From: an uncultured bacterium
GTDB taxonomy: Bacteria > Hydrogenedentota > Hydrogenedentia > Hydrogenedentales > JAEUWI01
Assembly: GCA_963977445.1 (NCBI GenBank)
Contig: CAXBPH010000130.1
Span: 1-18,353 of the forward strand
Reading direction: 5' to 3'
Length of the DNA: 18,353 nt
Part shown: positions 1,287 through 18,353 of the stretch, one piece after another
Layout: each line of letters starts with the position of its first letter
Numbering within the stretch: the first letter of the stretch is position 1
The notes under the pieces: model-generated
Database searches by the model: none
What the model saw: the letters and a program-made list of their open reading frames with translations, nothing else
What the model was told of the DNA's origin: nothing
Translations under genes and position numbers: made by a program

Positions 1287-1330
1287 GAGTGGCGTTCAAC
1301 CAAATAAATCACCAATGAGGCCCCCGACCC

Positions 1331-1936: not shown

Positions 1937-1942
1937 TTACCC

Positions 1943-2965: not shown

Positions 2966-3241
2966 ATACGGGCCTTCCCGCATAATGGAGCAAGTACTGG
3001 TGTGTGCTACGCGTCCGTCGGGGACCATTGAAATTGTGGACGCGATCCGCCCGAGTCAGACCCATTCATGGCGACCTTTCTTTCGGCTTTCCTGCCGCAC
3101 CCGGTCAAATCGCAAGCAAAATCAGATGCAGTTCACGCAGTAGCAGGTATTGTCTAGATGTCCACCACGGATCTAGAATGGGTCTCCGATTTCGATTGAC
3201 TTCTTACCGAACCAACCAACGCCCCTGGAAGGAACGACCTC

Positions 3242-4648
3242 ATGAAAGAAGATATTAACAGCACCCTTCAAAAGGCGCTGGAGATCAATCTCGACCCCCA
3301 TAAGTACGGCACGATTGCCGAAATTGGTGCGGGTCAGGAGATTGCGCGATTCTTTTTTCAGGCGGGCGGCGCGGCTGGCACGCTGGCAAAAACCATGTCG
3401 GCCTACGACATGCAATTCAGCGATGCTATCTATGGGGAAGAAGAGAATGGGCGCTACGTAAGCCGCAGTCGCCTGGAAAAAATGCTGGAGAAAGAATTTC
3501 GCTTGTTGGGCGAACGCATTCGCGATTCCCGGCCGAAAAACAGCTGTTTTTTTGCCATCGCCGATACCGTTAAGGCAGCCGGCTATAAGATCCGTGGTCA
3601 TTGTCATGGTTGGTTGGGCATTCGGGCTCAGCTCTATCCCGGTGCGCCGCCCAGCGATATTATTCTCCACGTGCGCATGCTCGACAACTCCAATCGCCAG
3701 CAGCAGTTTGCTCTGGGTGTATTGGGGGTTAATTTGATCTACGGTGCCTTTAATTACTACCGAAATCCGGAGCAATTGGTTGAATCCCTCTCCGACAATC
3801 TGGAACCGGGCCGCATCGAAATTAACATGATTAATTTTCAGGGGCCCTACTTCGACGATGTGGACAACCGGCTCATGGCGTTGCACCTCGTGAAGTCGGG
3901 TATGACCGGCGCGGTCATGTTCTCACCCGATGGTGACGTGCTACCGCCCTCCGACGTGCTCTATAAGAAAAACTGCCTCGTTTTTCGAGGAAGTTTCCGC
4001 CCCATTACCAACGTGAACATGGATATGGCACGTTGCGGTAAGGAGCGGTTTCTTGCCGAAGATGAGATAGATGGTGACCGCACCGTGTTGCTGGCCGAAT
4101 TAACCATGGCCAACCTGATGAACGACGGGGATATTGACACCCAGGACTTTCTGGCCCGCGTCGATATGCTCGGTGATCAGGGCTTCACCGTGCTCATATC
4201 CAATTACCTGCGCTTTTTCCGGCTTCGAAGTTATCTCAACGAGTTTACCAAGCGGAAAATCGGTATTGTCCTCGGGGTACCCAATATTCAGGACATTTTC
4301 AACGAAAAGTACTACACCGACCTGGAAGGGGGCATTCTCGAAGCCTTCGGAAAGCTCTTCTCCGGAAACATTCGTCTTTATGTCTATCCGGTTCTCGGGG
4401 AAGATGGCGAGCTGATTTGCCTCGACAATATTCGGGTGGGCAACCAGGTCCGCCTCTTATTGCGGCATCTCGTAGAAAACGGTTGTATTGTGCCCCTCGA
4501 TGGCGCAAGCAAAGAAGTCCTTCACATCCAATCCCGTGATGTTCTTAAGTCCATTCGACAGGGCCGGGAAGACTGGAAAGACGCTGTACCCGAAGACGTC
4601 TACGAAACCATCGTCAGCAAGGGCCTCTTTAATTTCGATTCGGAGTAA
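3242..4648 (+). CDS. conserved protein with a CinA/PncC-like N-terminal half and a NadD/nucleotidyltransferase-like C-terminal half
   Basis: N-terminal KALEINLD..YGTIAEIGAGQEIARFFFQAGGAAGTLAKTMSAYDM. Central VFRGSFRPITNVN resembles GSFxPxHxGH. C-terminal HIQSRDVLKSIRQG...VPEDVYETIVSKGLF resembles the NadD ISST...VP...I...GLY tail. RBS AAGGA upstream. Confidence 0.7.
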   Translation: MKEDINSTLQKALEINLDPHKYGTIAEIGAGQEIARFFFQAGGAAGTLAKTMSAYDMQFSDAIYGEEENGRYVSRSRLEKMLEKEFRLLGERIRDSRPKNSCFFAIADTVKAAGYKIRGHCHGWLGIRAQLYPGAPPSDIILHVRMLDNSNRQQQFALGVLGVNLIYGAFNYYRNPEQLVESLSDNLEPGRIEINMINFQGPYFDDVDNRLMALHLVKSGMTGAVMFSPDGDVLPPSDVLYKKNCLVFRGSFRPITNVNMDMARCGKERFLAEDEIDGDRTVLLAELTMANLMNDGDIDTQDFLARVDMLGDQGFTVLISNYLRFFRLRSYLNEFTKRKIGIVLGVPNIQDIFNEKYYTDLEGGILEAFGKLFSGNIRLYVYPVLGEDGELICLDNIRVGNQVRLLLRHLVENGCIVPLDGASKEVLHIQSRDVLKSIRQGREDWKDAVPEDVYETIVSKGLFNFDSE

Positions 4649-4722
4649 AGGGCGTTTGTGCGGTTGGCGGACCTTATTACGCCTGTACGTTGGCACGTAT
4701 TTCTGGTTCACACCAGAATCGG

Positions 4723-5079
4723 CTAAAAGGGTAACTCGTCGGTCGGCGTGAAATGATAGGTTTCGGGCTCATCGGGTTCCCAGCGAAAGACGGCGAGATC
4801 ACACCGGTCATCCGCGCCAAACAGCACGCCCTCCTCATCGAGCAATTCATACTGCAACGAAGGCCGTCCAGAATCCCCTCGAGCGCTCACCCCACCGCGA
4901 CTATTGATGACGCGCTGCCACGGCACGTCACTGCCCTCTTCGAGGGCGCGAAGGGCATAGCCTACGGCCCGTGCGGCCCGGGGCGCGCCAAGTATCGTCG
5001 CAATCTGCCCGTAGGTCATGACGCGGCCCGACGGGATATCTCGGACCAGGGTGTAGACGGCATCGTAGAAGTTGGGCAT
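4723..5079 (-). CDS. MGMT-family alkyltransferase-like protein (Atl/YbaZ type)
   Basis: MPNFYDAVYTLVRDIPSGRVMTYGQIA...AARAVGYAL...VPWQRVINSRG; Trp occupies the catalytic Cys position of PCHRV. The start was moved to ATG 5079 because the longer ORF extension does not resemble the family. Confidence 0.9.
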   Translation of the reverse strand: MPNFYDAVYTLVRDIPSGRVMTYGQIATILGAPRAARAVGYALRALEEGSDVPWQRVINSRGGVSARGDSGRPSLQYELLDEEGVLFGADDRCDLAVFRWEPDEPETYHFTPTDELPF

Positions 5080-5308
5080 GACAAAAAGGCTCGTGGCGTG
5101 GTGCCTGGGGAAAGTCCGATGTTTTGCACGGTGGATCGCTCTCAAACCATACGACGGGTGTGGCTGTTGGTGCAACCCTGGATTCAACGTCCAAGTGAAA
5201 TGCGTCGTTGATACTACTGTTTTCGTTGTTTCCCTATTGCCGGGCAGATAGTGGGGCGTTGATAGTTTCGTTAACCTGCCCACCGTTAAAAGCAGTGTTC
5301 CACGGTGC

Positions 5309-5337
5309 CACCCGATCCGGTATTCCCGGTTCGGGTG
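5309..5337. repeat. GC-rich intergenic hairpin
   Basis: CACCCGA-t-CCGG-tattc-CCGG-t-TCGGGTG: 11 bp of pairing with one T-T mismatch and no U-tract. Confidence 0.45.
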
Positions 5338-5655
5338 ACTTGGGCGAGGCTCCTGACGGGCTTGACGGGGCTATACGATAACCTTGTTCGTCAGCGTTGG
5401 CCGAAGGGTGAAAGGGTAAACCATGCTACGGTTATGTGTTCCCAAGTCATCCGTCCTTCCGGGTCAAGGCACCCGAACGCTTTCGGCAGGACGTGTGCCG
5501 ATTGCACCTGTTTTAAGACAACGGGATATCCCAACGTGTCCATTCTGAAAGCAGAGCGCGATCGGGTGGCACGTCGGCGAGACCACGAAAAAGGTAGGCC
5601 GTCGGTTGTTGCACGTAGTTTGTGAACCTGCAACCCTGCGTTGCCCACAGGTCAC

Positions 5656-5684
5656 TTGGCATTTGAAACTTTCCCCACTATAAT
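5656..5684 (+). promoter_or_regulatory. sigma70-type promoter for the sugar oxidoreductase operon
   Basis: TTGGCA (5656-5661), 17 nt, perfect TATAAT (5679-5684); about 140 nt before ATG 5825. Confidence 0.7.
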
Positions 5685-5824
5685 GGACCGATGCGTTTGC
5701 TACGGATTTCTGGAACATGGGCCCGTGCGAACCTGACGTAAGATGAAGGAAAGAATATAGTTCATACGTACGGGTGTGGCTCGACTGTGCCCGCGACAAG
5801 ACCTACGACGAAGGAGAGAACGGA

Positions 5825-6994
5825 ATGGCGAAGAAGAAACTCAACGTGGCCCTCATCGGCACGAAATTCATGGGCAAAGCCCACAGTAATGCTTTCCGCC
5901 AGGTCAGCCACTTTTTTGATCTGCCCGCCGAGCCGGTTATGAAGGTCATCTGTGGTAGCGACCCTAAGGGTACTCAGGAAGCGGCCGACCAGATGGGCTG
6001 GGAAGAAGCCAGCACGGACTGGAAGAAGACGGTTGCCCGGGAGGACATCGATATCGTAAGCATCGCGTCGCCTGGTTACCTTCATGCGCCCATGGCCATC
6101 GAAGCGGCGAAACAGGGTAAGCACGTCATCTGCGAGAAGCCCCTGGCCAACACCCTTAAAGAAGCGCAGGACATGCTCAAGGCGGTCGAGAAGGCCGGCG
6201 TGCAGAACATGTGCGGATTTACCTACCGCTTCAATCCCGCCATCGCCACCATTAAAAACATGATTCAAAAGGGCGAACTGGGCGAAATCTTCCACTACCG
6301 CGGATGCTACCTCCAGGATTGGATCGTGGATCCCGAATTTCCGGTCAACTGGCGCCTGAAGAAGAAGACGGCCGGCTCCGGTGCGTTGGGCGACATTGGT
6401 GCCCACACGATCGACATGGCCCAGAACCTTATCGGTGACATTGCCGAAGTGAGTGCCACGCTCCAGACCTTCATCACCAAGCGGCCCCTTGAAGAAGGCC
6501 AGGCCACCATCGCCAACAAAAAGACATCGGCCGGCAAAAAGAAAATGGGCACGGTCGATGTGGACGACGCCGCCATCGTTATCGCCCGCTTCAAGGGCTG
6601 CAACACCCTGGCTACTTTCGAAGCGACCCGTTTTGCTCCGGGACGTCGTAATTTCCACGGCCTGGAAATCTATGGCAGCAAGGGCAGTGTCATCTGGAAC
6701 CAGGAAGACATGCACAAGTTCCAGTATTACGATATCGCCGACGACGGCCTGAAGCAGGGTTTCCGGACCATCCACGCCACGGACCCCGGTCATCCTTATA
6801 CGGACGCCTGGTGGCCCAGTGCCCACAACATCGGCTACGAACACCTGTTTACCCACGAAGTCTATGAGTTCATTTCCCAGCTGAAGAAGAAGAAAGTCAC
6901 CTACCCGACCTTCGCTGATGGCGTTCAGTGCCAGAAAGTCCTCGACGCGGTAGAGAAGTCTTCTTCAAGCAAGAAGTGGGTCAACGTTAAATAG
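5825..6994 (+). CDS. Gfo/Idh/MocA family NAD-dependent oxidoreductase (levoglucosan-dehydrogenase-like subfamily)
   Basis: LNVALIGTKFMGKAHS Rossmann start, GKHVICEKPLA, YLQDW...WR...AGSGALGDIGAHTID, DVDD, EATR, HPY..AWWP...IGYE. AAGGAG RBS at 5811-5816. Confidence 0.92.
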   Translation: MAKKKLNVALIGTKFMGKAHSNAFRQVSHFFDLPAEPVMKVICGSDPKGTQEAADQMGWEEASTDWKKTVAREDIDIVSIASPGYLHAPMAIEAAKQGKHVICEKPLANTLKEAQDMLKAVEKAGVQNMCGFTYRFNPAIATIKNMIQKGELGEIFHYRGCYLQDWIVDPEFPVNWRLKKKTAGSGALGDIGAHTIDMAQNLIGDIAEVSATLQTFITKRPLEEGQATIANKKTSAGKKKMGTVDVDDAAIVIARFKGCNTLATFEATRFAPGRRNFHGLEIYGSKGSVIWNQEDMHKFQYYDIADDGLKQGFRTIHATDPGHPYTDAWWPSAHNIGYEHLFTHEVYEFISQLKKKKVTYPTFADGVQCQKVLDAVEKSSSSKKWVNVK

Positions 6995-7027
6995 TGCGGC
7001 AAAACTATAACGTGAGGGAGTTGCAGC

Positions 7028-7255
7028 ATGGGTCCGTTTGAGATTGGAATGATTCTAGTCAGTTTGGCGGTGTACCCCCTTTTATTTGCAGGGGCGCTTT
7101 TCCTTATACGGTATGTTTTCGATATGAAGAAACGACTTGCTATCAGGGAAGAAGAGCTTGCTGTGAAGAAGCGGTATGCTGAACAGGGTGACGAAGCCAT
7201 TGCATTGCTGAAGTCTATCAACGAGAACTTGGCCCATCGCACCAGCAAGAACTAG
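7028..7255 (+). CDS. small single-pass membrane protein with a charged coiled-coil-like tail
   Basis: GAGGGAG RBS at 7014-7020. Hydrophobic stretch IGMILVSLAVYPLLFAGALFLI followed by a charged helix. Confidence 0.65.
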   Translation: MGPFEIGMILVSLAVYPLLFAGALFLIRYVFDMKKRLAIREEELAVKKRYAEQGDEAIALLKSINENLAHRTSKN

Positions 7256-7357
7256 CGTTAACCCCCATTCCCAGGCAGCGCCTGGTAATGAAGAAAATTA
7301 AAACATCACACATCATACGGCTACGAACCGAACGCGAGAAACGGTAGTTCCGCTGCG

Positions 7358-7433
7358 TCTCAGGGACGGCAGGGACTACAGAGACAGCAGGAAAAGTTAC
7401 CTGCTGTCCCTGCCGTCTCTGTCGTCCCTGAGA
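7358..7433. repeat. 34-bp imperfect inverted repeat made of tandem 9-mers (CAGRGACNN)
   Basis: Arms 7358-7391 and 7400-7433 with loop AAAAGTTA. On the + strand this gives 29 Watson-Crick pairs, 2 G-U pairs and 3 mismatches. Confidence 0.85.
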
Positions 7434-7503
7434 ACCTGCGAAAATACCCTATGACAACATTGCCCGCCGTGAAGGCATCAAACGACAACGAAGGAGAATG
7501 ACC

Positions 7504-8469
7504 ATGAAATTAGGATTGCTGACCTGCATGTTCGGCGACAAGCCCTTGAAAGAAGTCCTGGAGCTCATCAAGCCCCTGGGTCTCGACACCGTCGAACTTG
7601 GTGCCGGTGGTTACCCCGGTGATGCCCACGCGCCCACCAAGGAGCTCCTGGCCTCCAAGCCCAAGCGCGAAGAACTCCTTGCCATGATTAAGGGCGAAGG
7701 CCTGGAAATCAGTGCCCTGAGTTGCCATGGCAATTCCCTGCACCCCAACAAGGCTCTCGCGAAGGAATTTCAGAAGGCTCAGTCCGATACCATCAAGCTC
7801 GCTGGCTTGCTCGGTGTGAAGACCATCAACGACTTTTCGGGCTGCCCCGGTTCCGACAAGAAGGCCGAACAGCCCAACTGGGTGACCTGCGCCTGGCCAC
7901 CAGACTACCTCGAAATCCTCGACTACCAGTGGAACGAGGTCGTTATTCCTTATTGGACCAAGCAGGCGAAGTTCGCCAAGGACAATGGCGTGCGGGTAGC
8001 TTTCGAAGCCCACCCCGGTTTCGTGGTTTACAATACGGAAACCCTGTTGAAGATCCGTAAAGCGTGCGGCAATAACCTCGGTGCCAATTTCGACCCCAGC
8101 CACTTCTTCTGGCAGGGTATCGAGCCCATCGAATCCGTCAAGGCTCTCGGCGGCAACGCCATCTTCCACGTCCATGCGAAGGACTCCAAGGTCGACCCCG
8201 TCAACAGTTCCATCAACGGCGTCCTCGACACCAAGCATTATGGTGACGAAGCCAATCGCAGCTGGGTCTTCCGCACCTGTGGCTATGGCCACAGCCTGGA
8301 GTGGTGGAAAGACTTTTTCACCGCACTTACCTTGGCGGGCTACGATGGTCCCGTCAGCATTGAACACGAAGATGCGCGTATGTCCAGCCAGGAAGGCCTC
8401 ACCAAGGCCGTCGAATTCCTCAAGCAGTGCATCATCCGCGACAAACCCGGTGCGATGCACTGGGCGTAA
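7504..8469 (+). CDS. sugar phosphate isomerase/epimerase family (xylose-isomerase-like TIM barrel)
   Basis: MKLGLLT, VELGAGGYPGDAH, ISALSCHGN, FEAHPG, NFDPSH, HVHAKD, W.FRT.GYGH, SIEHED metal ligands. AAGGAG at 7491-7496 favours ATG 7504 over 7498. Confidence 0.92.
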   Translation: MKLGLLTCMFGDKPLKEVLELIKPLGLDTVELGAGGYPGDAHAPTKELLASKPKREELLAMIKGEGLEISALSCHGNSLHPNKALAKEFQKAQSDTIKLAGLLGVKTINDFSGCPGSDKKAEQPNWVTCAWPPDYLEILDYQWNEVVIPYWTKQAKFAKDNGVRVAFEAHPGFVVYNTETLLKIRKACGNNLGANFDPSHFFWQGIEPIESVKALGGNAIFHVHAKDSKVDPVNSSINGVLDTKHYGDEANRSWVFRTCGYGHSLEWWKDFFTALTLAGYDGPVSIEHEDARMSSQEGLTKAVEFLKQCIIRDKPGAMHWA

Positions 8470-8494
8470 GCCAACTATCCCTATAGACTAGCTC

Positions 8495-8527
8495 AAGGAG
8501 CACGGCATCGGCCGTGCTCCTTTTTTC
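8495..8527 (+). terminator. rho-independent terminator
   Basis: AAGGAGCACGGC-atcg-GCCGTGCTCCTT followed by a T-run, 25 nt after the isomerase stop. Confidence 0.9.
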
Positions 8528-8652
8528 TGAAGTTTCAGGCCGGCGTATCGGGTGCGCTATCTCCAGATACCAATCCCGGCGGGGTGTATACTGAAGATAC
8601 GTGCCCGTTGGATGGGGGCCGGACGCGACGAAACACGTCAGGGAGGCGAAGG

Positions 8653-9357
8653 ATGAAAAGGAGACGACGTTGGCTGCGGAATGGCTGTCTACTCGGCGTT
8701 CTTGTGCTCGTCGCCGTGTATTCCATCCATACTGCCCGTAGTGTCGTCGCCGAGTTTTTCCTTGTTGATTGTTCTGCTCTCGGAAGATCTGCGGGGTTGA
8801 GTCTCCAATTATATGCCTATGAATCGGAGGGGAGGTTTTTCCCACCACTGCGTAACCGGCAAGCCCCATTAACGGTAGACTCGAAATATTTGGTCCCTGC
8901 GTATTCGAGCGAGGAGAATTTTCATCAGACGTTCCGCTATCACGGGGTTAGCTCCGCCACCGGACAAGATTTCTACTATCTGGGTTACGCGGTCGAGAAC
9001 GAAGAAGAGATGGCGGCATTTGCTGCGGCATACGAACTAAGACGCGCTGAGGGCGGGGAGTTTACGGGAGACTTATCGGTGCCAACAGATAGGGAAGGCC
9101 ATGGGGGTCGTACAATCAAACGCTTGACCAAGCACACCGCCGAATCACGATCCATGGTGCCCCTTCTCATTGAGAAGTCTGGCCACTACCATCGTCCTGG
9201 CGGCTACGTTGTCTACACCGACGGTGCTGTGGAGTTTATCGTGTATCCTGGCAAATGGCCGATGAGCAAGGCGACGATGGATAGGTTGAAGACGCTCGAA
9301 GAGGTGATTTCAGTGAGCACGGCGTCGTCGGGCGAAATCGTTACGATGATTCCGTGA
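8653..9357 (+). CDS. DUF1559-like / H-X9-DG motif membrane-anchored protein
   Basis: GGAGG RBS. Basic N-terminus plus a TM segment, C...GLSLQLYAYES..FPPL, and C-terminal H-RPGGYVVYT-DG (exact H-X9-DG) followed by VEFIVYPGKWPM. Confidence 0.65.
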   Translation: MKRRRRWLRNGCLLGVLVLVAVYSIHTARSVVAEFFLVDCSALGRSAGLSLQLYAYESEGRFFPPLRNRQAPLTVDSKYLVPAYSSEENFHQTFRYHGVSSATGQDFYYLGYAVENEEEMAAFAAAYELRRAEGGEFTGDLSVPTDREGHGGRTIKRLTKHTAESRSMVPLLIEKSGHYHRPGGYVVYTDGAVEFIVYPGKWPMSKATMDRLKTLEEVISVSTASSGEIVTMIP

Positions 9358-9955
9358 TACGATCGACTTCCCGCTGGTAACAGTCGGGGCAGTAGCTGTG
9401 GGTAAAATCGGCCTGGGTGTGTTGGCTGATGTAGGCTTCCACCACATGCCAGAAGCCCTCATCGTCCCTTATTTTCTTACATTCTGCACAAATAGGAACC
9501 AAGCCGCGTAGCGTCTCGATATCATTGAGCGCTGTCTGCAACTGCTCAATGAGCGCGTCTTTCTCTGCTTCCCGTTCACGAACGGTACGTCGAAGCCGGG
9601 ACCGCTCGAGGGCATTTTGTACCGCCCGGCTGAGGTCCGATTCCCGCAAGTCGCTCTTCGTGAGATAGTCATCCGCACCGACTTGTAACGCTTTTACCGC
9701 CAATGCCTCGCTGCCCCGCGCCGTACAGACGACAACGGGCAACTGTTGCTCTACCAACTCGGGTATGAGCAGCGTGCCTTCGCCATCGGGGAGCCGAAAG
9801 TCCAGGAGCACGCAGTCTGGCTTGCTCAGTTGAATGGAGGTGCGGGCAGCACCCAAGGTGTCTGCAAACTGAATCGTGTAATCTTGACCGAGTAAACGCT
9901 CAATCGATTCTCGAAATACGTCATCGTCCTCTACAACTAATATTTTCACAGCCAT
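9341..9955 (-). CDS. response regulator: REC + coiled coil + C-terminal Cys/His-rich domain
   Basis: ILVVEDD, LLDFRLPDG, TARG, DYLTK receiver motifs. Tail LVPICAECKKIRDDEGFW..VEAYI..H....FTHSYCPDC. Confidence 0.9.
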   Translation of the reverse strand: MAVKILVVEDDDVFRESIERLLGQDYTIQFADTLGAARTSIQLSKPDCVLLDFRLPDGEGTLLIPELVEQQLPVVVCTARGSEALAVKALQVGADDYLTKSDLRESDLSRAVQNALERSRLRRTVREREAEKDALIEQLQTALNDIETLRGLVPICAECKKIRDDEGFWHVVEAYISQHTQADFTHSYCPDCYQREVDRITESS

Positions 9956-9966
9956 ACGTTGACCCC

Positions 9967-10377
9967 TTATCTAAATGTCACGATGCTGCAGTAATGACTC
10001 AGCATTCGCGTAGAATTGTCGAAATTTGCGTCCAATCCAGATTTCAGCAGATAGCCTGCAATCTGGAATTCATAGGCTTCCCGTCGGTCCGCCTCATTAC
10101 TTGAGGTCGTTAATACAAAAACGACGATATGTTTTAGCTTTGGATTGCCTCTGAGTTCTTTCAGAAATTCCAACCCACTCATCCGGGGTAACTTTAAATC
10201 CAGCAGAATGATAAAGGGCTCCGCCATGGGCGGCGGGGTCGTGCCACGTAATATGTCGAGGGCTTCGAGGCCGTCGGAAGCCCGGCGTACCGGGAAAGGT
10301 ACCTCAGCCTTGCTCAGGGCGCGACATACCCGCTCGGCCTCTACATCATCATCTTCTATGAGCAATACAGATACCAT
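9967..10377 (-). CDS. single-domain response regulator (Rcp1-like)
   Basis: VLLIEDD, DGLEAL, ILLDLKLPRMSGLEFLKELR, VFVLTTSS..DR..AY, GYLLK. AGGAGA RBS supports start 10377. Confidence 0.9.
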   Translation of the reverse strand: MVSVLLIEDDDVEAERVCRALSKAEVPFPVRRASDGLEALDILRGTTPPPMAEPFIILLDLKLPRMSGLEFLKELRGNPKLKHIVVFVLTTSSNEADRREAYEFQIAGYLLKSGLDANFDNSTRMLSHYCSIVTFR

Positions 10378-10517
10378 GCTTCTCCTGTCCCTACACGAAA
10401 TTAAGCGCCTCGTCCGAAACCGGATGTGTGCCCCTCCGAAATTTGGGCATATTTGGGTCAAATTCACCCAATTCGTGGCGATGTCGGCGCATAGGCCATT
10501 CTAATCACGTAATGGGA

Positions 10518-12020
10518 TTATACCCGAGAATCGATGGGCCAGGTAAATTCAAAGGTAGTTCCCTCACCGATCGTGGACGTAACCTGGATGGTCCCACCAC
10601 AGGCACCCAGTAATTTCTTAACAATGGCCAGGCCCATGCCACTGCCTTCTACCTTATCCCGGGGCTTCAATGTTTCGAATAACATGAATATTTTGTCGTG
10701 AAAATCGGGCGCGATCCCGGGGCCGTCGTCGGCGATGCGGAACACATAGTGGGTCGGCGAGGTCTCGCAACTGACCGTGATAGCACCATCCTCCCGATCG
10801 TGGTGCTTAATGGCATTTCCGATTAAGTTTAAGAATACCCGCCGGAGGGGCGTCTCGGCCGTCGTGAGCTGGGGGAGATCGTCTTGAATGTGAAAGTTAA
10901 ATTCTTTCGGCGGGTGCAGGGAATTTACGACTTCTTCTACCAATTCGTGGACATTTACCGGGTCCAGTGTCGTTTCCAGACGCCCGGCCCGTGAGTAGGC
11001 CAACAAATCATCCAGCAGTACTTTGAGGCGGGAGGCCCGCTGCTGGATCTGCTGCAGGTGGCGCTGAGAGGCTTCGGGCAGCAGGGCTGCCGCGTCTTCC
11101 TGGACCCAGCCCGCCAGGCTTTGTATGCCTTCAAGTGGCGTGCGAAGGTCGTGGGAGGCCACATAGGCGTATTCGTCGAGTTCCTGATTGCTGCGCTCTA
11201 ATTCGGCGGTATAGCGCGCCAGCGTCTCCTCCGCTTTTTTGCGCTCTGTAATATCGACGATAGTCGCCAGGACCAGGGTTCCTTCGTCGGATTCGATGGG
11301 ATTCAGGCCGATTTCTACGGGTATTTCTGTGCCATCCTTGCACTGACCGTAGAGGTCCCGTCCCCGTCCCATCGGGCGGGTTTCCGGTGCGGCCAGAAAC
11401 GCGTCACGATAGGCGGGGTGCGGTCCGTGGAGGTGAGCAGGTACCAGCACTTCAATATCCTGCCCCACCAATTCTCCCTGTTCATAGCCAAAAATAGTGT
11501 TACATACTGGGTTGGTGAGCACGATCTTGCCCTTATCATTCACGATTACAATGCCATTCGGAACGGATTCAATAACTTTGCGCAGTCGCTCCTCCGATTT
11601 CGTGATCGCTTCCAACGCCTTGTTCAATTCTGCGTTGACCGCTCCGAGTCCGGGCAATGACAAGGCTTTTGGGATGACCGGTATGAGGGCGAACACCGTG
11701 GCCCAGGACACAATGGCGGTAATAAGCTTAACAATCCCCGAAAGCCGATAACTGGGCCACCAGAAGATACCGGCATCCAGCAGGTGGGTCGTTCCACAAG
11801 AAAAAATAAACGCAGCGAAGAGCCAAAAGACAGGAAGGAAAGGGATATCTTTGCGTTTCAGGATGAAATAGGTCAACGTCGCTGGAATGGCCATGTAGGC
11901 ACCCCAGATCGCGGTATCGGAAATTATATGGAGCCAGCCATGACCTTCGCTCCAATTGCCACAATACCAACGGGCGGGGAAATCAGATGTATCGAACAGT
12001 TTCTCAAAAAACTCGACCAC
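10518..12020 (-). CDS. sensor histidine kinase with ETR1-type ethylene-binding domain, PAS, HisKA and HATPase domains
   Basis: Three-TM N-terminus SDTAIWGAYMAIP...FAAFIFSCGTTH. PAS-PAC. H-box AYVASHDLRTPL, N-box NLIGNAIKHH, G1 DDGPGI, G2 GSGMGL. GTG start with GGGAGA RBS. Confidence 0.92.
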   Translation of the reverse strand: MVEFFEKLFDTSDFPARWYCGNWSEGHGWLHIISDTAIWGAYMAIPATLTYFILKRKDIPFLPVFWLFAAFIFSCGTTHLLDAGIFWWPSYRLSGIVKLITAIVSWATVFALIPVIPKALSLPGLGAVNAELNKALEAITKSEERLRKVIESVPNGIVIVNDKGKIVLTNPVCNTIFGYEQGELVGQDIEVLVPAHLHGPHPAYRDAFLAAPETRPMGRGRDLYGQCKDGTEIPVEIGLNPIESDEGTLVLATIVDITERKKAEETLARYTAELERSNQELDEYAYVASHDLRTPLEGIQSLAGWVQEDAAALLPEASQRHLQQIQQRASRLKVLLDDLLAYSRAGRLETTLDPVNVHELVEEVVNSLHPPKEFNFHIQDDLPQLTTAETPLRRVFLNLIGNAIKHHDREDGAITVSCETSPTHYVFRIADDGPGIAPDFHDKIFMLFETLKPRDKVEGSGMGLAIVKKLLGACGGTIQVTSTIGEGTTFEFTWPIDSRV

Positions 12021-12166
12021 GGTACAGTCTCCCGAAACTGGGTAAAATACGATTCGGGAACTGGGGGAAGAAGATCCCCATTGCGCCGAAAGCCTGTCGA
12101 CGCATCTCCCGTTGTCCTTTACAGCCCATCTGCTCTGAGCCTATGGCCTGTGAAGACACACCTCAA

Positions 12167-12200
12167 TGTAGAGTCTACACCACTTGCAGGCGATTGCCAA
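12167..12200 (-). promoter_or_regulatory. candidate sigma70 promoter of the kinase operon with a palindrome over the -10
   Basis: Minus strand TTGGCA (12200-12195), 17 nt, TAGACT (12177-12172). Dyad TGTAGA-G-TCTACA at 12167-12179. Confidence 0.5.
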
Positions 12201-12221
12201 CCGGTGGGCGGGCAGACTGTC

Positions 12222-13784
12222 TTAGGCGTCGTGGTGCCGCATACGATCCAATACGTTGCGTGTAATTTGTTGTGCCCGCGGGTCGGGGCCCTGGGGCTCG
12301 GTATAGGTCGCCGGCCGAATGTAGCCCGGAGGCTCGGCGAGTCCATCGGCCCACCAGATTGTCGCGGCATTGAACACAATGTTGCCCTTTTTCCCGGGGT
12401 AAACCGTCGCTGCGTAGGTTCCTTCTGCGCTGCCCGTAGAGGCCGTGCCCGTGGCGACGACGCGAAGCCCGGGAATGTCTGCCGGGGCACCGTGCCACTC
12501 GAAGCCCACGAGTCCCGGAATGGCGTCCCCATTCTTCATGCCCGTACCATCGAAAATCCAGTGATCCTCGGCGCTACAGGTCCAGTCAGCGCCGCCGGAT
12601 ACGGGGTAGATATCCCGGCCACCAATCATGAGGGCCTGATCCGGTCCTTTGTGGGGCAGGGTAGCCACGGCGGGATACTTCTCACAGAGCACCTCGTCGA
12701 TGGGGCCGAAATGGTCAACCCGCGTGATGTGGCGGTGGGTGTGCCCGTTGCTATCCGACAGCAGGTCAATCATGCCCCAGCAGGTGTCCCCGGAAAAAAA
12801 GCCAGCACTCATCCCGTCGTTGATAGCCGCCATGACGTTGTCATACATGGTCCGGGTCCAGTATTCGTCGTGGCCCAGGGAAAGAAAGCCCTTTACACGT
12901 CGCAGGCCGGGTCCGTCGGCGTGGGTATCCAGATTGGAGGCATAGGTGACATCGTAGCCCTCTTGCTCCAGCCAATAGACCATGGGAAATTCCCACAGCA
13001 TAAACTCGCCCGATCCGATGGAGAGGGGGGTATCGACTACCTGACAATACTTGCCGTAGGGCCGATTGAAGCTGGTCGCCGTGCCTGCACCCAGGTACCA
13101 TTCGGAATTTCCATCGTCATAGAGGGCAAATTGATCGGGCCAGCGGTTGTAGGCATTCCACGTGGTATCGCTGCATTGAAACATGAAATCGGCACGACGA
13201 TCATCGCGAACGATAAAGATGACGTAACTCTGGAGGCCGTCTTTCTGCTCCGTCAGTTTTCCGACGTAAACACCACTTACCCAGTCTTCGGGAATGGTCA
13301 AGGTCGTGCTCGGCTCCCAGGCACAATCCCGGAGGCGCATATCGCCCACGTCGGGGTCGGGTTGGGTCTCACCACTAAATTCGCCGAGGCTCGTCATGTG
13401 ACGTCCACCCTTGCCGCCGTAGAAGCCCATACGGAAGATTTCCACGGTGAACGGTGCGGGCGGGTTGGTGGAGACCATGATAGATAGAGGTTCACCCGGC
13501 CGAACGGACGTGGCGCTGCAGTAACCTTCGATACGTGGACTGCGATATCGTGTGTCCGGGTCGATATGGGTCTTCGTCAGCAGCCATGCTGTGGTGCCTG
13601 TGATGGCGTTTTCTTTCTGGATTGCATTCAGGGTGGGCTGGGTGTCGGAAGTCGCTCCTGAAGCCTCGCTGGCGCCGCCAGTGACACCGAGCATACCGAG
13701 CCCCAACGCAGCGCCCTTCAACAGGTCTCGACGGCCCAGACCGTGGGGGAGAGGTGATTCAGCATCGGTGGGTGGTGGGGTCAT
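12222..13784 (-). CDS. Tat-exported N,N-dimethylformamidase beta-subunit-like protein (DUF6605-type)
   Basis: GRRDLLKG twin-arginine signal plus h-region. IEGY...SVRPGE, EIFRMGFYGG.GGR, W.SGVY..KL, TWNAYN.W, SFNRPY, WLEQEGYDVTY, GHDEYW. Confidence 0.8.
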   Translation of the reverse strand: MTPPPTDAESPLPHGLGRRDLLKGAALGLGMLGVTGGASEASGATSDTQPTLNAIQKENAITGTTAWLLTKTHIDPDTRYRSPRIEGYCSATSVRPGEPLSIMVSTNPPAPFTVEIFRMGFYGGKGGRHMTSLGEFSGETQPDPDVGDMRLRDCAWEPSTTLTIPEDWVSGVYVGKLTEQKDGLQSYVIFIVRDDRRADFMFQCSDTTWNAYNRWPDQFALYDDGNSEWYLGAGTATSFNRPYGKYCQVVDTPLSIGSGEFMLWEFPMVYWLEQEGYDVTYASNLDTHADGPGLRRVKGFLSLGHDEYWTRTMYDNVMAAINDGMSAGFFSGDTCWGMIDLLSDSNGHTHRHITRVDHFGPIDEVLCEKYPAVATLPHKGPDQALMIGGRDIYPVSGGADWTCSAEDHWIFDGTGMKNGDAIPGLVGFEWHGAPADIPGLRVVATGTASTGSAEGTYAATVYPGKKGNIVFNAATIWWADGLAEPPGYIRPATYTEPQGPDPRAQQITRNVLDRMRHHDA

Positions 13785-13869
13785 GGATACGGTCCTTTTG
13801 TTGAGTCGAGCTATCCTACCTCAGGTCGAGGCGCTTATCCCAGCGTGACGATTCTACGGGACCGTGCAC

Positions 13870-13899
13870 AAAAAAACCTGTGTCCAGGGGGACACAGGT
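13870..13899 (-). terminator. rho-independent terminator after yebC
   Basis: ACCTGTGTCC-aggg-GGACACAGGT 10-bp stem with an A7 run at 13870-13876 (U-tract on the minus strand). Confidence 0.85.
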
Positions 13900-13925
13900 A
13901 AGGAATTTCGCGTGTTGATATTTTA

Positions 13926-14678
13926 TCAGTCGGCCATTGCGGCTTCCATGGCCTCGTCGGTCAACTCGACATTATTAAAGACTTCCTGGATGTCTTCATC
14001 GTCATCCAGCATATCCATGAGGGTTAACATCGTCTTCAAGGCCTTACCGTCCAGCTCTACCGTCGTCTTGGGAACCATGGTGAGCTTGGCTTCTTTGGGC
14101 ACGATACCCATCGCCTCCAGGGCACTGGCTACATTGTGAAGCTCGGTATTCTCGGTGGTGATGTCGTAGGTCTCGCCTTCCATGTCTACATCTTCGGCCC
14201 CCGCTTCGGTGGCTTTTTCAAAGATGGTATCGTCGTCGAGGCCCTCTTTTTCAACAACAATGAGACCCTTCTGTTCGAAGTTCCAACTTACCGCGTTGGA
14301 TTCCGCCATACTGCCGCCATACTTGGCCAGCAGGTGGCGCACGTTGGCCACGGTACGATTTTTGTTATCCGTGAGGGTGTCGATGATGAGGCCGGCACCG
14401 GCAGGGCCGTAGCCTTCATATCGCTGGGATTCGTAGGTAACCCCTTCGATTTCGCCGGTACCTTTTGCGATGGCCCGGGCAATATTGTCCTTGGGCATAT
14501 TTTCCGCCTTGGCCGCCAGCAAGACGGTGCGCAATCGGGGATTCATATCGGGATCGCCACCACCCATTCGGGCCGCTACCGAGATTTCCTTGGCGAGCTT
14601 GGAAAAGATTTTACCCCGTTTCGCATCGAGAGCACCCTTCTTACGCTTGATGGTGCTCCATTTAGAGTGACCGGACAT
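13926..14678 (-). CDS. yebC: YebC/PmpR (TACO1) family protein
   Basis: MSGHSKWSTIKRKKG..DAKRGKIFSKL, NPRLR, MPKDNI.RAI, YEGYGP.G, TDNKNRT. Start set at the family-typical MSGHS. Confidence 0.96.
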   Translation of the reverse strand: MSGHSKWSTIKRKKGALDAKRGKIFSKLAKEISVAARMGGGDPDMNPRLRTVLLAAKAENMPKDNIARAIAKGTGEIEGVTYESQRYEGYGPAGAGLIIDTLTDNKNRTVANVRHLLAKYGGSMAESNAVSWNFEQKGLIVVEKEGLDDDTIFEKATEAGAEDVDMEGETYDITTENTELHNVASALEAMGIVPKEAKLTMVPKTTVELDGKALKTMLTLMDMLDDDEDIQEVFNNVELTDEAMEAAMAD

Positions 14679-14728
14679 GTATCGCAATCTCCATATGAAC
14701 AGATTCGTGCCGAGAAATAGACCGCTGG

Positions 14729-14758
14729 ATTGTAGCAGAGCACAGAGATTTTGTGCAA
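14729..14758 (-). promoter_or_regulatory. sigma70-type promoter of yebC
   Basis: Minus strand TTGCAC (14758-14753), 18 nt, TACAAT (14734-14729) with a TGn extended -10. Confidence 0.55.
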
Positions 14759-14794
14759 AGGTCAATCAGGCGAACTTTTTCCTTAAAATGCAAT

Positions 14795-14825
14795 AGAAAA
14801 CGCGATTCCCAGAGGAATCGCGTTT
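14795..14825 (-). terminator. terminator-like hairpin ending the ATPase/EIIA operon
   Basis: AAACGCGATTCC-caga-GGAATCGCGTTT 12-bp stem, T-rich tail on the minus strand, 23 nt after the EIIA stop. Confidence 0.75.
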
Positions 14826-14848
14826 GGAATGTAATTAATCAACCGAGC

Positions 14849-15319
14849 CTATTGGCCATCTTCGGCCGCCTCAATCAGCGTGTAGGCTTCTTGCGGGCCG
14901 ACCGACTTAATGAGTTTTATCAGAAGTTCTTCGCTTTCCAGGAGGTGTTGCACTCCACGAATCGCCTGAACTTCGCCCAGAAAATCCTTTTTGGGAACGA
15001 GGAGGAGTACGACGACTTTGGCGACCTTGTCATCCAACGACCGGAAGGGAATTCCCTTGGCCGAGATGCCAATCGTGCAAATTACGTCTTCCACCAGATC
15101 GGTTGCCAGATGGGGGACGGCTATGCCGCGGGCCATACCGGATCCCAGGGAGTCTTCATTGGCATAGAGACCATCAAGCAGTATACCGCGGTGCTTCATG
15201 GGCACATCGTGATATTGAATGAGGATATCCATCAATTCACTGATGGTTTCCCGCTTCTTTTCCGCGTCCAGTCCTATCTTGATAAGCTCGGGCCGCAATA
15301 TCTCATGTAACATTATCAT
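14849..15319 (-). CDS. PTS EIIA (fructose/mannitol/Ntr-type, PTS_EIIA_2) domain protein
   Basis: L.A..K.E.I.EL, GIAVPH phospho-His motif, GIPF.SLD...K.V.LL. Start overlaps the atpD stop (ATGA); an alternative start is 15313. Confidence 0.85.
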   Translation of the reverse strand: MIMLHEILRPELIKIGLDAEKKRETISELMDILIQYHDVPMKHRGILLDGLYANEDSLGSGMARGIAVPHLATDLVEDVICTIGISAKGIPFRSLDDKVAKVVVLLLVPKKDFLGEVQAIRGVQHLLESEELLIKLIKSVGPQEAYTLIEAAEDGQ

Positions 15320-16005
15320 TGGGCCTGCTCCTGTACGGCAGCCTTTTCTTTTGCTGCAGCCTGCGCCTTGCGCTTCTGAACGGCCTTCTTGCCCTTGATT
15401 TTCTTCAGGCGGAAGGTGTCTTCCCGCTCGCGTTCGTCCAGCACACTGGCAATACCCCGCATTTGGCCGCGCAAGCGGGGCAGGAGGTATTCTTCCAGCG
15501 CGTTGATACGGCGGGAGACTTTTTTCACTTCTTCACCCACTATCTGGAGGTTACGCTCCAGGGGGGCGCATATAAGGAGCTGGGCAAGCATGAGTTCCGA
15601 ACTTTCGGAGGCTTCCTGTACATGGGCGGACGTATCCAGCAGTCCCATGCCACGGGTCGATGGGGTGCGGACGACGCCGACCTGATCGATACGACCGAGG
15701 GGAAGGCCCCAGACTTTATCGGAGCCCACCTTCAAGTCAAGCTCACGGCGGCCAGCGACGGCGGCCGACTTGAGCTCGGGCGTACCCCGAACGGCACGGG
15801 CCATGGCAACGGCATCACCTGCCGCACGACCCCGTTCATGGAGCTCATCGCGCATGTCGCGAAGTTCACGAGCCCGCGTCAGCAATTCCTGCATCAGGGC
15901 GTCTCGTTTGCCCTTCAACAGACCCACCCCGTCGGAAGCCATTTTGATCTGGCCCTTCAGGAGGAGCATATTCATGCGTGTTGGCGCTATATTGTCCATA
16001 CTCAT
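15316..16005 (-). CDS. atpD: V/A-type ATP synthase subunit D
   Basis: PTRMNMLLLK, G..LLK.KRDAL..E, EVKKVSRRINALE..LLP, LDEREREDTFRLKKIK. Confidence 0.95.
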   Translation of the reverse strand: MSMDNIAPTRMNMLLLKGQIKMASDGVGLLKGKRDALMQELLTRARELRDMRDELHERGRAAGDAVAMARAVRGTPELKSAAVAGRRELDLKVGSDKVWGLPLGRIDQVGVVRTPSTRGMGLLDTSAHVQEASESSELMLAQLLICAPLERNLQIVGEEVKKVSRRINALEEYLLPRLRGQMRGIASVLDEREREDTFRLKKIKGKKAVQKRKAQAAAKEKAAVQEQAQ

Positions 16006-16102
16006 GGTTCAAAATCTCGTGTGAAGTTTGAGTTTAACGTGTTGCCACGTCAGACGGTGCTTCGATTGTATATTCAACGGCCCAACCGTGGGCTGATGAA
16101 AG

Positions 16103-16132
16103 GCCTGACAGGACTCAGGAGCCCTGTCAGGC
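16103..16132. repeat. intra-operon hairpin between subunits B and D
   Basis: GCCTGACAGG...CCTGTCAGGC 10-bp perfect arms. Only a short CTTTC tail on the transcribed (minus) strand. Confidence 0.6.
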
Positions 16133-16148
16133 AAACGTAACGACGTTA

Positions 16149-17597
16149 CTAGGCGTTTTCGATCGTCGATACCGCTTCTTTTTTCACGGTGGCGTTGGGA
16201 TCGATTGGCACGTAGAATTCTTCAACGGTTTCGCGCTTGATACGGGTCAGTTCGGACTTGGGCAGGTGACCCATGACCTTCCAACCGATGGCGAAAGTGT
16301 CTTCCATGGGACGACGGGTCATACCCTGTCCAATCATTTCCGCTTCGAATGCATTGGAGAAACGGAGATACTTCTTGTCGAGCTCTGTCAGGGCGTCTTC
16401 ACCCACGATGGCCATCAGCTTTTTGATACGCTGACCTTCGGCATAGGCGGCGTAGAGCTGGTTAGCCCATTCGCGGTGCCAGGGCTGTGTCTTGTTCTTG
16501 CCGATACCATTGTTCATGAGACGGGAAAGACAGGGCAGCAGGTCCACCGGCGGGAAGATACCCTGGCGGTGAAGGGGACGACTCAGTACGATCTGGCCCT
16601 CGGTGATATAACCGGTAAGGTCAGGAATGGGGTGCGTGATATCGTCATCCGGCATGGTAAGCATGGGGATCTGCGTTACCGAGCCACTGTTGCCACGGAT
16701 ACGACCGGCGCGTTCATAGATGGTCGACAAATCGGTGTACATGTAACCGGGATATCCACGACGTCCGGGAATTTCTTCACGGGCGGAGGAGATCTGACGG
16801 AGTGCGTCGCAATAGTTGGTCAAGTCGGTCAGTACGACGAGTACCTGGTATCCTTTTTCAAAGGCCAGGTATTCAGCGACCGTCAGGGCGCAACGGGGGG
16901 TGAAGAGTCGTTCAATCGCCGGATCATCCGCCTGATTGATAAACGCCACCACCTGGGATCCCTTACCGCCTTCTTCGAAGGCCTTCAGGAAGTACTCGGT
17001 CTCACGGGCGGTAATGCCCATGGCCGCAAACACCGTCACGAAAGGCGTGTCGTCGCCCTTGGTACCGGCGTTCTGCACGATCATGTTGGCGATTTCGTTA
17101 CCAGGAAGACCGGAGCCCAGGAAGATAGGAAGCTTCTGACCACGTACCAGGGTGTTGAACCCGTCGATGGTGGAGAGGCCGGTTTCGATAAAGTCATTAG
17201 GCGCATCGCGAGACACGGGATTAATGGCTGAACCACCGATTTCCACTTCCTTTTCCGGCACAACCGGGGGCAATCCGTCGATAGGTACGCCCGTTCCATT
17301 GAAACGGCGACCAATAACGTCAGGGGTACAGGCGACCTTGGCGGCGCTATCCTTGAGGGATACCGACGTGCCTTTGATATCGACACCACGTGTTCCCTGC
17401 AGAATCTGCAGTACGGCGTGGGTCTTGGTCGCTTCGAGGATCTGGCCCTGGCGCTGTTCACCGCTTTCCATGTGAACATTGAGGATAGCGCCCGTTGGGA
17501 AACGTTCACCATTCTCCAGAAAAACCAGGGGACCCGAAACATAGGTCATGTCCCAGTATTCTTTTTGGAGTGTTTCTTCGTTACTATTTTCAGACAT
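16149..17597 (-). CDS. atpB: V/A-type ATP synthase subunit B
   Basis: LVRGQKLPIF.GSGLP.NEIA, ADDPAIER..TPR.ALT.AEYLA, EEIPGRRGYPGYMYTDL..IYERAG, DITHPIPDLTGYITEGQI, LSRLM. Confidence 0.97.
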   Translation of the reverse strand: MSENSNEETLQKEYWDMTYVSGPLVFLENGERFPTGAILNVHMESGEQRQGQILEATKTHAVLQILQGTRGVDIKGTSVSLKDSAAKVACTPDVIGRRFNGTGVPIDGLPPVVPEKEVEIGGSAINPVSRDAPNDFIETGLSTIDGFNTLVRGQKLPIFLGSGLPGNEIANMIVQNAGTKGDDTPFVTVFAAMGITARETEYFLKAFEEGGKGSQVVAFINQADDPAIERLFTPRCALTVAEYLAFEKGYQVLVVLTDLTNYCDALRQISSAREEIPGRRGYPGYMYTDLSTIYERAGRIRGNSGSVTQIPMLTMPDDDITHPIPDLTGYITEGQIVLSRPLHRQGIFPPVDLLPCLSRLMNNGIGKNKTQPWHREWANQLYAAYAEGQRIKKLMAIVGEDALTELDKKYLRFSNAFEAEMIGQGMTRRPMEDTFAIGWKVMGHLPKSELTRIKRETVEEFYVPIDPNATVKKEAVSTIENA

Positions 17598-17614
17598 GGC
17601 AGTAATTCCCTGGG

Positions 17615-18353
17615 TTATTTGGCTTCAAGTGCGCCAAGGACCTGTTTGTAGTTTTCGATGCAGGCATCTTTCTTGGCCGTGAAGCCTTCATTCGGCTCTT
17701 CCTTAAGACGCGAAATTTCTTCACGAAGGGGGAGATCCGTGATGCGCGTCAAGGGAATTTCACGTTCAAGGACCTTCATGCACTCCTCGTGATAGACAAG
17801 GATCATCTCAAGAAGGCCGAAGCATTTATCCAAATCGCAGGCCGCGTCGTTTTCGGAAAACGCACTCTGTTGGAGGAATACTTCGCGAACCATACGGGAT
17901 ACTTCGAGGATAAGGCGTTCCTGATCCTGCAGGGCGTCGGGTCCGACCAACTGAACGATGTCATTCAATTCGTGTTCACGCTGAAGCAGCGAGGCTGCCT
18001 GCTGGCGACGTGCAATCCAGCCCGTCGGTGCGTTTTCTTCGAACCAGTCCTTGAGCCCTTCGAAATACAGGGTGAAACTGGTATTCCAGTTAACACTGGG
18101 ATAGTGACGACGGTAGGCCAGACCGGAATCCAGCGCCCAGAGGGCACCCGACACACGCATGGAGGTCTGGGTAACCGGTTCCGAGAAGTCACCACCGGGA
18201 GGGGACACGGCACCTACAGCGGTCAAGGAACCCTTACGGGGCTTGTCGCTCGTGGCTTCAGTACCGCAGCAAATCACGTTACCGCAACGTTCATAGAATG
18301 CAGCGATACGTTCGGAAAGGTAGGTTGGATAGCCTTCTTCACCGGGCATCTCT
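17615..18353 (-). CDS. atpA: V/A-type ATP synthase subunit A, C-terminal part (truncated by the window edge)
   Basis: EMPGEEGYPTYL..RIAAFYER.G, GAVSPPGGDFSEPVTQ, LAYRRHYPSVNW..S, IVQLVG.DAL, FLQQ.AF. Confidence 0.96.
   Translation of the reverse strand, partial: EMPGEEGYPTYLSERIAAFYERCGNVICCGTEATSDKPRKGSLTAVGAVSPPGGDFSEPVTQTSMRVSGALWALDSGLAYRRHYPSVNWNTSFTLYFEGLKDWFEENAPTGWIARRQQAASLLQREHELNDIVQLVGPDALQDQERLILEVSRMVREVFLQQSAFSENDAACDLDKCFGLLEMILVYHEECMKVLEREIPLTRITDLPLREEISRLKEEPNEGFTAKKDACIENYKQVLGALEAK

Follow-up and report, generated by a model that had tools for sequence, protein, structure and literature searches.

We analysed a stretch of 18,353 nucleotides of DNA from an uncultured bacterium of the Hydrogenedentota (assembly GCA_963977445.1, contig CAXBPH010000130.1, positions 1 to 18,353 of the forward strand), hereafter called the window over its full length, and found on its reverse strand a gene for a sensor histidine kinase that begins with an ethylene-binding domain (EBD) of the type known from the plant receptor ETR1. 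Two response regulator genes, RR1 and RR2, follow the kinase gene, and the three probably constitute a two-component operon with an ethylene-receptor-type kinase. Between the EBD and the kinase core lies a PAS domain that resembles the heme-binding PAS domains of FixL, DosP and FG214. The elements of the kinase gene are as follows:

10518..12020, minus strand: sensor histidine kinase gene, 500 aa (P0001; open reading frame (ORF) with translation, Pfam)
11952..11999, minus strand: conserved segment LFDTSDFPARWYCGNW, residues 8-23, before helix 1 (252 homologues)
11655..11942, minus strand: ETR1_N ethylene-binding domain, residues 27-122 (PF25487, E 4.5e-37)
11223..11594, minus strand: PAS domain, residues 143-266, with matches to heme-binding PAS domains of the FixL/DosP/FG214 class (phmmer, Foldseek)
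10986..11171, minus strand: HisKA dimerisation and phosphoacceptor domain, residues 284-345 (PF00512, E 2.2e-13)
10533..10856, minus strand: HATPase_c catalytic domain, residues 389-496 (PF02518, E 2.4e-26)

Pfam resolved the protein into an EBD, a PAS domain (match at residues 144-259), a HisKA and a HATPase_c domain, in this order, and detected neither a GAF nor a receiver domain at E ≤ 0.1. A first-pass annotation of the window, made from the sequence alone, had described an intact ETR1-type EBD on a GAF-free bacterial histidine kinase at 11660-12020, i.e. at kinase residues 1-120, and the matches to PF25487, HisKA and HATPase_c bear this description out. The H-box histidine of the kinase is H290, within the motif SHDLRTPL; H-box, N-box and G-boxes are all present in the sequence, and the closest solved relatives of the HATPase_c region are the kinase cores of bacteriophytochromes. 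The gene opens with a GTG codon at 12020, with GGGAG about 8 nt upstream. Since the homologues start at the same position, with a methionine, and the GGGAG precedes the codon, we consider this start supported. The recorded protein (P0002) is identical to the kinase of the window except for the methionine at its start.

The ethylene-binding domain

The match to PF25487 (ETR1_N) reached 126.7 bits against a cut-off of 27 and covered model positions 2-97 of 97, and a profile scan of the whole genome placed ETR1_N at the same site. PF25487 found no match in any of 14 control genomes. Score and controls together put the match far beyond chance, and we regard it as practically certain that the domain is a true member of ETR1_N. 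The novelty that the first-pass annotation had implied for such a domain was overstated, as ETR1_N is already curated in Pfam and counts thousands of proteins from bacteria.

Wang et al. reportedly showed in 2006 that ethylene binding by Arabidopsis ETR1 (AtETR1) requires D25, Y32, I35, P36, I62, C65 and H69. In the translation of the window gene, the seven residues that had been named as their counterparts, D35, Y42, I45, P46, I72, C75 and H79, are all present. We modelled residues 1-130 with AF2 from a 44-row alignment and obtained three helices (residues 25-55, 62-84 and 91-121) at a mean pLDDT of 92.9; D35, Y42, I45 and P46 fall in helix 1, I72, C75 and H79 in helix 2, and K98 in helix 3, in agreement with the assignment of the named residues to three hydrophobic helices. 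D35 is situated 10 residues into helix 1 and K98 7 residues into helix 3, while C75 and H79 are 9 and 5 residues away from the outer end of helix 2. With all four residues placed 5-10 residues from the periplasmic helix ends, the model suggests that D35, C75, H79 and K98 share a similar depth in the membrane. The loop between helices 1 and 2 contains K55-R56-K57 and, following the positive-inside rule, should be cytoplasmic. This would leave the N-terminus in the periplasm and the PAS domain and kinase in the cytoplasm, and we infer a membrane topology as in ETR1.

How well are these residues kept? We pooled two homologue searches into a set of 252 homologues; as these are the best matches to the query, some of the conservation is to be expected. 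In 242 of the 252, all seven binding residues are the same as in the window protein. Residue by residue, D35 and H79 occur in 252/252, C75 in 251/252 and K98 in 249/252. Among solved structures the EBD has no relative by our searches: phmmer against the PDB returned no match at E ≤ 10 and Foldseek none at E ≤ 0.001, and the best VIA-align hits (Z 8.9), BAR-domain and generic helical bundles, are below the level that is meaningful for helical proteins.

Just before helix 1, the segment LFDTSDFPARWYCGNW (modelled at pLDDT 88-93) is conserved to a similar degree: R17, C20, G21 and W23 each occur in 252/252 homologues, W18 in 251/252 and F14 in 249/252, and C20 is the sole conserved cysteine of the segment. 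Given the topology above, the segment is probably periplasmic and near the outer end of the helix bundle, where the putative copper residues lie. In ETR1, an N-terminal pair of cysteines forms a disulfide, and the single Cys20 of the window kinase replaces this pair. We speculate that Cys20 might form an inter-subunit disulfide or take part in copper loading, and the segment could serve as a lid over the binding pocket.

Comparison with AzoEtr1, ETR1 and SynEtr1

A tblastn search of plasmid records with residues 1-130 led to a gene of Azospirillum brasilense Sp7 that is about 46% identical over residues 6-123. We recovered it as a 525-aa ORF (L003:2486-4063), and its N-terminal residues agree with the cloning primer printed in the description of the receptor AzoEtr1 (PMC11819568). 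The window protein aligns to AzoEtr1 without a gap over residues 6-124, the residue numbering of the two being identical, and D35, Y42, I45, P46, I72, C75, H79, K98 and C20 all coincide. The AzoEtr1 study equates D25, C65, H69 and K91 of AtETR1 with D35, C75, H79 and K98 of AzoEtr1 and states that all seven ethylene-binding residues are conserved there (PMC11819568). Through this register, the constant offset of +10 from ETR1 that the first-pass annotation had claimed is supported, with D25, C65 and H69 as the anchoring residues, and its guess that K98 corresponds to K91 is supported by both the alignment and the publication. The offset is +10 in helices 1 and 2 and +7 at K98, so the loop between helices 2 and 3 is shorter in the window protein than in ETR1.

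AzoEtr1 is also informative on function. As reported in PMC11819568, its residues 1-130 bind 14C-ethylene in a saturable manner, and complementation fails with D35A as well as with C75A. The equivalent residues of ETR1 (D25, C65, H69 and K91) have been assigned roles in a separate study (PMC10266040). The absence of a GAF domain, presented in the first-pass annotation as if it were a distinguishing mark, is shared with AzoEtr1, which is likewise an EBD-PAS-kinase with a stand-alone regulator (PMC11819568, PLoS Genet 2025).

AzoEtr1 and its regulator AzoRR-etr1 thus match the window system in the order of EBD, PAS, HisKA and HATPase_c (525 aa versus 500 aa in the window) and in a stand-alone receiver gene directly downstream of the kinase. 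However, the identity is only about 46% in the EBD and about 30% overall. The PAS domain of AzoEtr1 aligns poorly, has a valine at the position of H201 and is not FixL-like; a second, cysteine-rich regulator, present as RR2 in the window operon, is absent; and the host is a plant-associated alphaproteobacterium, whereas the window host is an uncultured bacterium of the Hydrogenedentota. We therefore rejected orthology with AzoEtr1, based on the 46% identity of the EBD, the unlike PAS domain and a long branch with an SH-aLRT support of 99 in the EBD tree (see below).

With Arabidopsis ETR1, whose register we read through AzoEtr1 and not from the plant sequence, the window kinase shares the three-helix ETR1_N domain and the four residues (Asp, Cys, His, Lys) that have been assigned to the binding of copper and ethylene and to signal relay. 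It lacks the GAF domain and the C-terminal receiver of ETR1, and its output would be a classical phosphotransfer operon instead of CTR1. SynEtr1 (slr1212) of Synechocystis, which we compared by its description only, is a bacterial EBD protein with His-kinase phosphotransfer to a neighbouring regulator (PMC11819568); it has a photosensory module, while the window kinase has no GAF domain. EBDs encoded on cyanobacterial plasmids are 43-49% identical to the EBD of the window.

A PAS domain of the FixL type

Searching the PDB by phmmer with residues 137-270, we obtained 15 matches, 14 of them at E ≤ 1e-9. These 14 are all heme PAS domains, namely those of Bradyrhizobium japonicum and Sinorhizobium meliloti FixL, E. 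coli DOS/DosP (YddU) and the entry 10jx. The best match to FixL had an E-value of 5e-14, and the FixL alignments are free of gaps. The entry 10jx is the heme-binding PAS domain of FG214, in which the proximal histidine was assigned by spectroscopy and mutagenesis, according to a preprint (10.64898/2026.03.15.711900). The variant chains 2cmn (R206A) and 1y28 (R220A) fix the register between the window PAS domain and B. japonicum FixL, which gives the following correspondences:

FixL His200 (proximal): window H201
FixL Arg220: window R221
FixL Arg206: window A207
FixL His214: window R215

A conserved arginine, R205, neighbours the Arg206 position. The AF2 model of the domain has a pLDDT of 78.1, and in a Foldseek search with this model FixL, FG214 and EcDOS/DosP fill all the listed rows up to rank 22, with TM scores of 0.72-0.88 by query, those to FixL being 0.85-0.88. 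The window PAS domain keeps the proximal histidine and the distal arginine, and its predicted fold is like that of FixL; of the two ligand-switch arginines of FixL, Arg220 has a counterpart in R221, while Arg206 is replaced by alanine. The domain also differs in sitting on a copper-type membrane sensor, in place of the N-terminus of FixL itself. The kinase is not an orthologue of FixL, as it scored 97 bits with the NCBIfam model sens_FixL_Rhizob against a cut-off of 850.

H201 is invariant in 24/24 orthologue-like rows, and at least 90% of these rows have R221 as well; with a looser selection, H201 occurs in 25/28 and R221 in 24/28 rows. Across the 252 EBD homologues, we found 140 PAS domains in 101 proteins, a biased set in that it was recruited with the window PAS domain as query: 45 of these domains have both the His and the Arg, 8 only the His, 1 only the Arg and 86 neither. 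EBD proteins with a FixL-type PAS domain number 44 of the 252, range from 373 to 1,678 aa and represent several architectures. We note one independent case of an EBD fused to a heme-type PAS domain, a 512-aa EBD-PAS-kinase followed by two receiver genes in the metagenome-assembled genome (MAG) of an uncultured member of the Phycisphaeraceae (L060:731-2269), in which the motif from the F helix to the G strand closely resembles the one in rhizobial FixL. In the literature that we searched, which did not extend to key reviews of the EBD, we found no work joining the ethylene-binding domain and FixL, and among the listed papers on ethylene receptors, heme and PAS domains in bacteria, judged by title and the opening of the abstract, none describes such a fusion. 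Both the FixL-type PAS domain and the cysteine-rich RR2 described below go beyond the first-pass annotation.

The regulators and the flanking genes

The kinase gene is accompanied by the following elements:

9967..10467, minus strand: RR1, stand-alone receiver regulator (Response_reg, E 2.1e-15, no other domain)
9341..9955, minus strand: RR2, 204 aa (P0123), with receiver, predicted coiled coil and Cys-rich C-terminal domain
12021..12221, minus strand: 201-nt intergenic region ahead of the kinase gene, probable operon boundary

The RR1 reading frame runs to 166 aa from its first GTG, but the start is likely Met31 at 10377, which would yield a protein of about 136 aa. RR2 starts 11 nt past the stop codon of RR1, and the acceptor aspartate is present in both receivers. 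The C-terminal domain of RR2 (residues ~150-204, about 50 aa) has the pattern CxxC ... CxxC and belongs to no family, the receiver being the only Pfam or NCBIfam match of the protein. Predicted structures show this module also at the C-terminal end of proteins from several phyla that carry PAS, receiver, MASE1, Cache or DUF4118 domains.

The order kinase-RR1-RR2 is kept in 5/5 loci of the same genus and was also seen in two Hydrogenedentota MAG loci, which may overlap with these five. Recent transfer specific to this genome can be rejected, as the gene is syntenic in 5/5 same-genus genomes. In two other genera of the family, an EBD kinase without a PAS domain is directly followed by an RR2-like gene (2/2 loci). 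In one same-genus genome (G004, L091:3121-6674), tandem EBD-PAS-kinases of 503 and 500 aa stand ahead of RR1 and RR2, the product of a local duplication.

The genome of the window itself encodes a second EBD kinase on contig C95 (L098:3370-8155), a protein of 427 aa with an EBD, a coiled coil and a kinase region, and with no PAS domain. Its EBD is intact and 56% identical to that of the window kinase, and the genes downstream encode a receiver protein and a hybrid kinase of 1,012 aa (receiver, PAS, kinase, receiver).

A DMFA2_C-family gene and yebC lie upstream of the kinase gene on the same strand, and a DMFA2-like gene occupies the upstream position in 3/5 same-genus loci. The region upstream of the kinase contains one sigma-70-like match (12200..12172) versus a mean of 2.4 in shuffled sequences, which is no evidence for a promoter, and across 9100-12400 a scan for promoters and terminators gave counts no higher than in shuffles. 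Elsewhere in the window, two ORFs on the plus strand have no Pfam match at E ≤ 0.001, one at 3242-4648 (468 aa) and one at 8584-9357 (257 aa), the latter convergent with RR2. V/A-type ATPase genes occupy 15316-18349 on the minus strand, with subunit D, then a subunit with ATP-synt_ab and VA_C domains, and at the end the 3' part of another ATP-synt_ab/VA_C subunit, cut by the end of the window.

Distribution and phylogeny

How widespread is the domain? A phmmer search with residues 1-130 in a library of 1.84 billion cluster representatives gave 7,773 matches at E ≤ 1e-3, 5,543 at ≤ 1e-10 and 911 at ≤ 1e-30. A word-seeded search gave 910 matches among 1,097 candidates, and the outputs found on these EBD proteins comprise kinases, hybrid kinases, HWE kinases, GGDEF, multi-PAS and GAF domains. 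Scanning 185,579 species genomes with a pattern, we confirmed at least 526 EBD loci; the best 80 of these are mostly from Planctomycetota, with further loci from Verrucomicrobiota, Myxococcota and Hydrogenedentota and with one cultured strain, Lacipirellula limnantheis. Several loci (L012, L018, L071 and others) encode the EBD as a separate ORF of about 195-240 aa with a PAS/kinase ORF directly after it, an arrangement that may reflect either genuinely split receptors or frameshifts in the MAG contigs.

Previous studies reported predicted EBDs in many proteobacteria, cyanobacteria and other bacterial phyla (PMC7700396; PMC11819568), and 1,221 EBD sequences were analysed in another study (PMC10266040). 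Our literature search found no work on an ethylene-binding domain in Planctomycetes, though reviews outside it may list these phyla; searches for ETR1_N or PF25487 and for ethylene receptors in planctomycetes returned only unrelated items, as judged by title and the opening of the abstract, those of the latter search being on rhizosphere microbiomes.

RuvB and the closest EBD homologues place the host in the Hydrogenedentota. All 7 sequences with an organism name among the best 120 RuvB homologues are from Candidatus Hydrogenedentes/-ota (80-91% identity), and the closest named EBD locus among the best 80 is from a Hydrogenedentota MAG, at 85% identity, which agrees with the earlier suggestion of a lineage unrelated to cyanobacteria and Azospirillum. 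In our sample of Hydrogenedentota, ETR1_N scored above its cut-off in 11/135 genomes: 9/15 in the family of the window, this genome included, and 2/120 outside it, one of the two being fragmentary. A smaller sample from other families of the order contained ETR1_N in 0/26 genomes. This patchy distribution is compatible with lateral acquisition without demonstrating it; lateral gain or repeated loss could each account for it.

We calculated a tree of the EBD by a quick method from 87 rows and 125 columns, leaving out 2 of 89 loci with too short an EBD. A clade of 85 sequences from Planctomycetota, Verrucomicrobiota, Myxococcota and Hydrogenedentota was separated from AzoEtr1 and one cyanobacterial row; as the 80 named loci are best matches to the query, its tightness is in part a product of selection. 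The window EBD groups with the rows of the same genus and of the Hydrogenedentales (SH-aLRT 94), and this group is nested in a poorly resolved mix of other phyla.

Discussion

Here, we describe a kinase that adds one member to a large family, which is curated and has in part been tested, with AzoEtr1 as its closest functional model. The best reading of the sequence is that of a Cu-dependent sensor of ethylene or a similar small ligand, and by comparison with the tested receptors we consider it likely that the EBD binds ethylene through copper. Beyond what is known of the family, the FixL-type PAS domain on a copper-type domain, the Cys20 motif and the output domain of RR2 may be the points of interest.

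How could such a receptor work? Cu(I) would be held within the three-helix EBD by C75 and H79 of helix 2, with D35 of helix 1 helping to position the site and K98 of helix 3 relaying the state of the ligand. The copper would bind ethylene or some small unsaturated gas much like it, and this binding would, by analogy with ETR1 and SynEtr1, lower the autophosphorylation of H290. In the cytoplasm, the PAS domain connects the membrane domain to the kinase core; it probably binds heme b through H201, and O2, another diatomic gas or the redox state might in this way provide a second input to the kinase. Phosphate would then be passed to RR1, to RR2 or to both, and RR2 would act through its cysteine-rich, zinc-ribbon-like domain. 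In this scheme, the sign of the regulation is inferred, and so are the regulators that partner the kinase and the targets they act on. Its full form, a two-gas integrator in which a membrane copper reads ethylene, a cytoplasmic heme reads O2 or another diatomic gas and one kinase core feeds both into RR2, is a tentative idea.

Several observations weigh against ethylene as the ligand. A long and well-supported branch (length 1.74, SH-aLRT 99) sets the 85-sequence clade apart from AzoEtr1 and the one cyanobacterial row; the bench-tested receptors lie outside this clade, and the host of the window is itself uncultured. The residues R17, W18, C20, G21 and W23, invariant in the clade just outside helix 1, are found only partly in AzoEtr1, which has FDTS, C20 and W23 in common with the segment LFDTSDFPARWYCGNW, and this extra motif could point to an altered site or to another ligand. 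A published model places T68 of ETR1 near the copper (PMC10266040), and its counterpart in the window kinase, T78, varies (T in 171/252, G in 46/252, V in 26/252). The hosts of the best 80 loci are mostly aquatic and soil MAGs of Planctomycetota, Verrucomicrobiota, Myxococcota and Hydrogenedentota, not known plant associates. A functional copper-type EBD might then serve another alkene, CO, an isonitrile or another pi-acid, or report on the supply or redox state of periplasmic Cu(I). We consider this rather unlikely. The residues known to be needed for ethylene binding are kept at nearly 100%; AzoEtr1, which has these residues too and is 46% identical, is an ethylene binder (PMC11819568); and a host need not be associated with plants, since ethylene also forms abiotically in waters exposed to sunlight (PMC6682694). 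Alternatively, the kinase could mainly sense O2 or redox state by way of its heme-type PAS domain, with the ETR1-like helices mainly as a ligand-free anchor and dimerisation module. Of all parts of the protein, it is indeed the PAS domain that comes closest to sensors known from experiments (FixL, E 5e-14), but a passive anchor would not keep the intramembrane polar residues D35, C75, H79 and K98 in 249-252 of 252 homologues, only 44/252 EBD proteins have a FixL-type PAS domain, and the second EBD kinase of this genome, with its EBD intact, does without a PAS domain altogether. Taken together, these points make a pure O2 or redox sensor very improbable.

If the EBD does read ethylene, the role of the PAS domain has to be weighed in its own right. 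The domain might be FixL-like in fold only, a heme-free linker for signal transmission, in which case the kinase would be a single-input ethylene receptor, and the PAS domain of AzoEtr1 may likewise be such a linker. The positions of FixL Arg206 and His214 are not conserved (Ala207 and Arg215 in the window), the F helix and the FG loop around the heme pocket are modelled at a pLDDT of only 64-70, and proteins with LOV-type PAS domains enter the Foldseek list from rank 23. These points speak against heme, and a heme-free PAS domain is a serious contender. However, the proximal histidine is invariant in all orthologue-like rows and co-varies with the distal arginine, and every PDB match at E ≤ 1e-9 is a heme protein. 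On balance, we lean slightly towards a PAS domain that binds heme.

Flooded plants couple ethylene and oxygen sensing. The recurrence of EBDs with FixL-type PAS domains suggests that bacteria of sediments and waterlogged habitats may couple ethylene and oxygen as well.

In the account given by PMC11819568, SynEtr1 and AzoEtr1 are the only bacterial ethylene receptors tied to physiology. Their hosts are linked to light or to plants, and the gene of the window extends the intact site to the Hydrogenedentota. We know of no cultured member of this candidate phylum. With a high-confidence model of 130 residues and no solved relative, members of the clade are reasonable targets for a first EBD structure. 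If only the ethylene part of our interpretation is true, the find is sound but ordinary. If the PAS domain binds heme, the kinase would offer a natural system for the integration of two gas signals in one protein, and also a handle on the output domain of RR2, which is without a family. This receptor falls into a very large clade together with sequences of Planctomycetota, Verrucomicrobiota and Myxococcota, and its intact site lends support to the idea that bacteria in general may use ethylene, or a gas similar to it, as an environmental cue.

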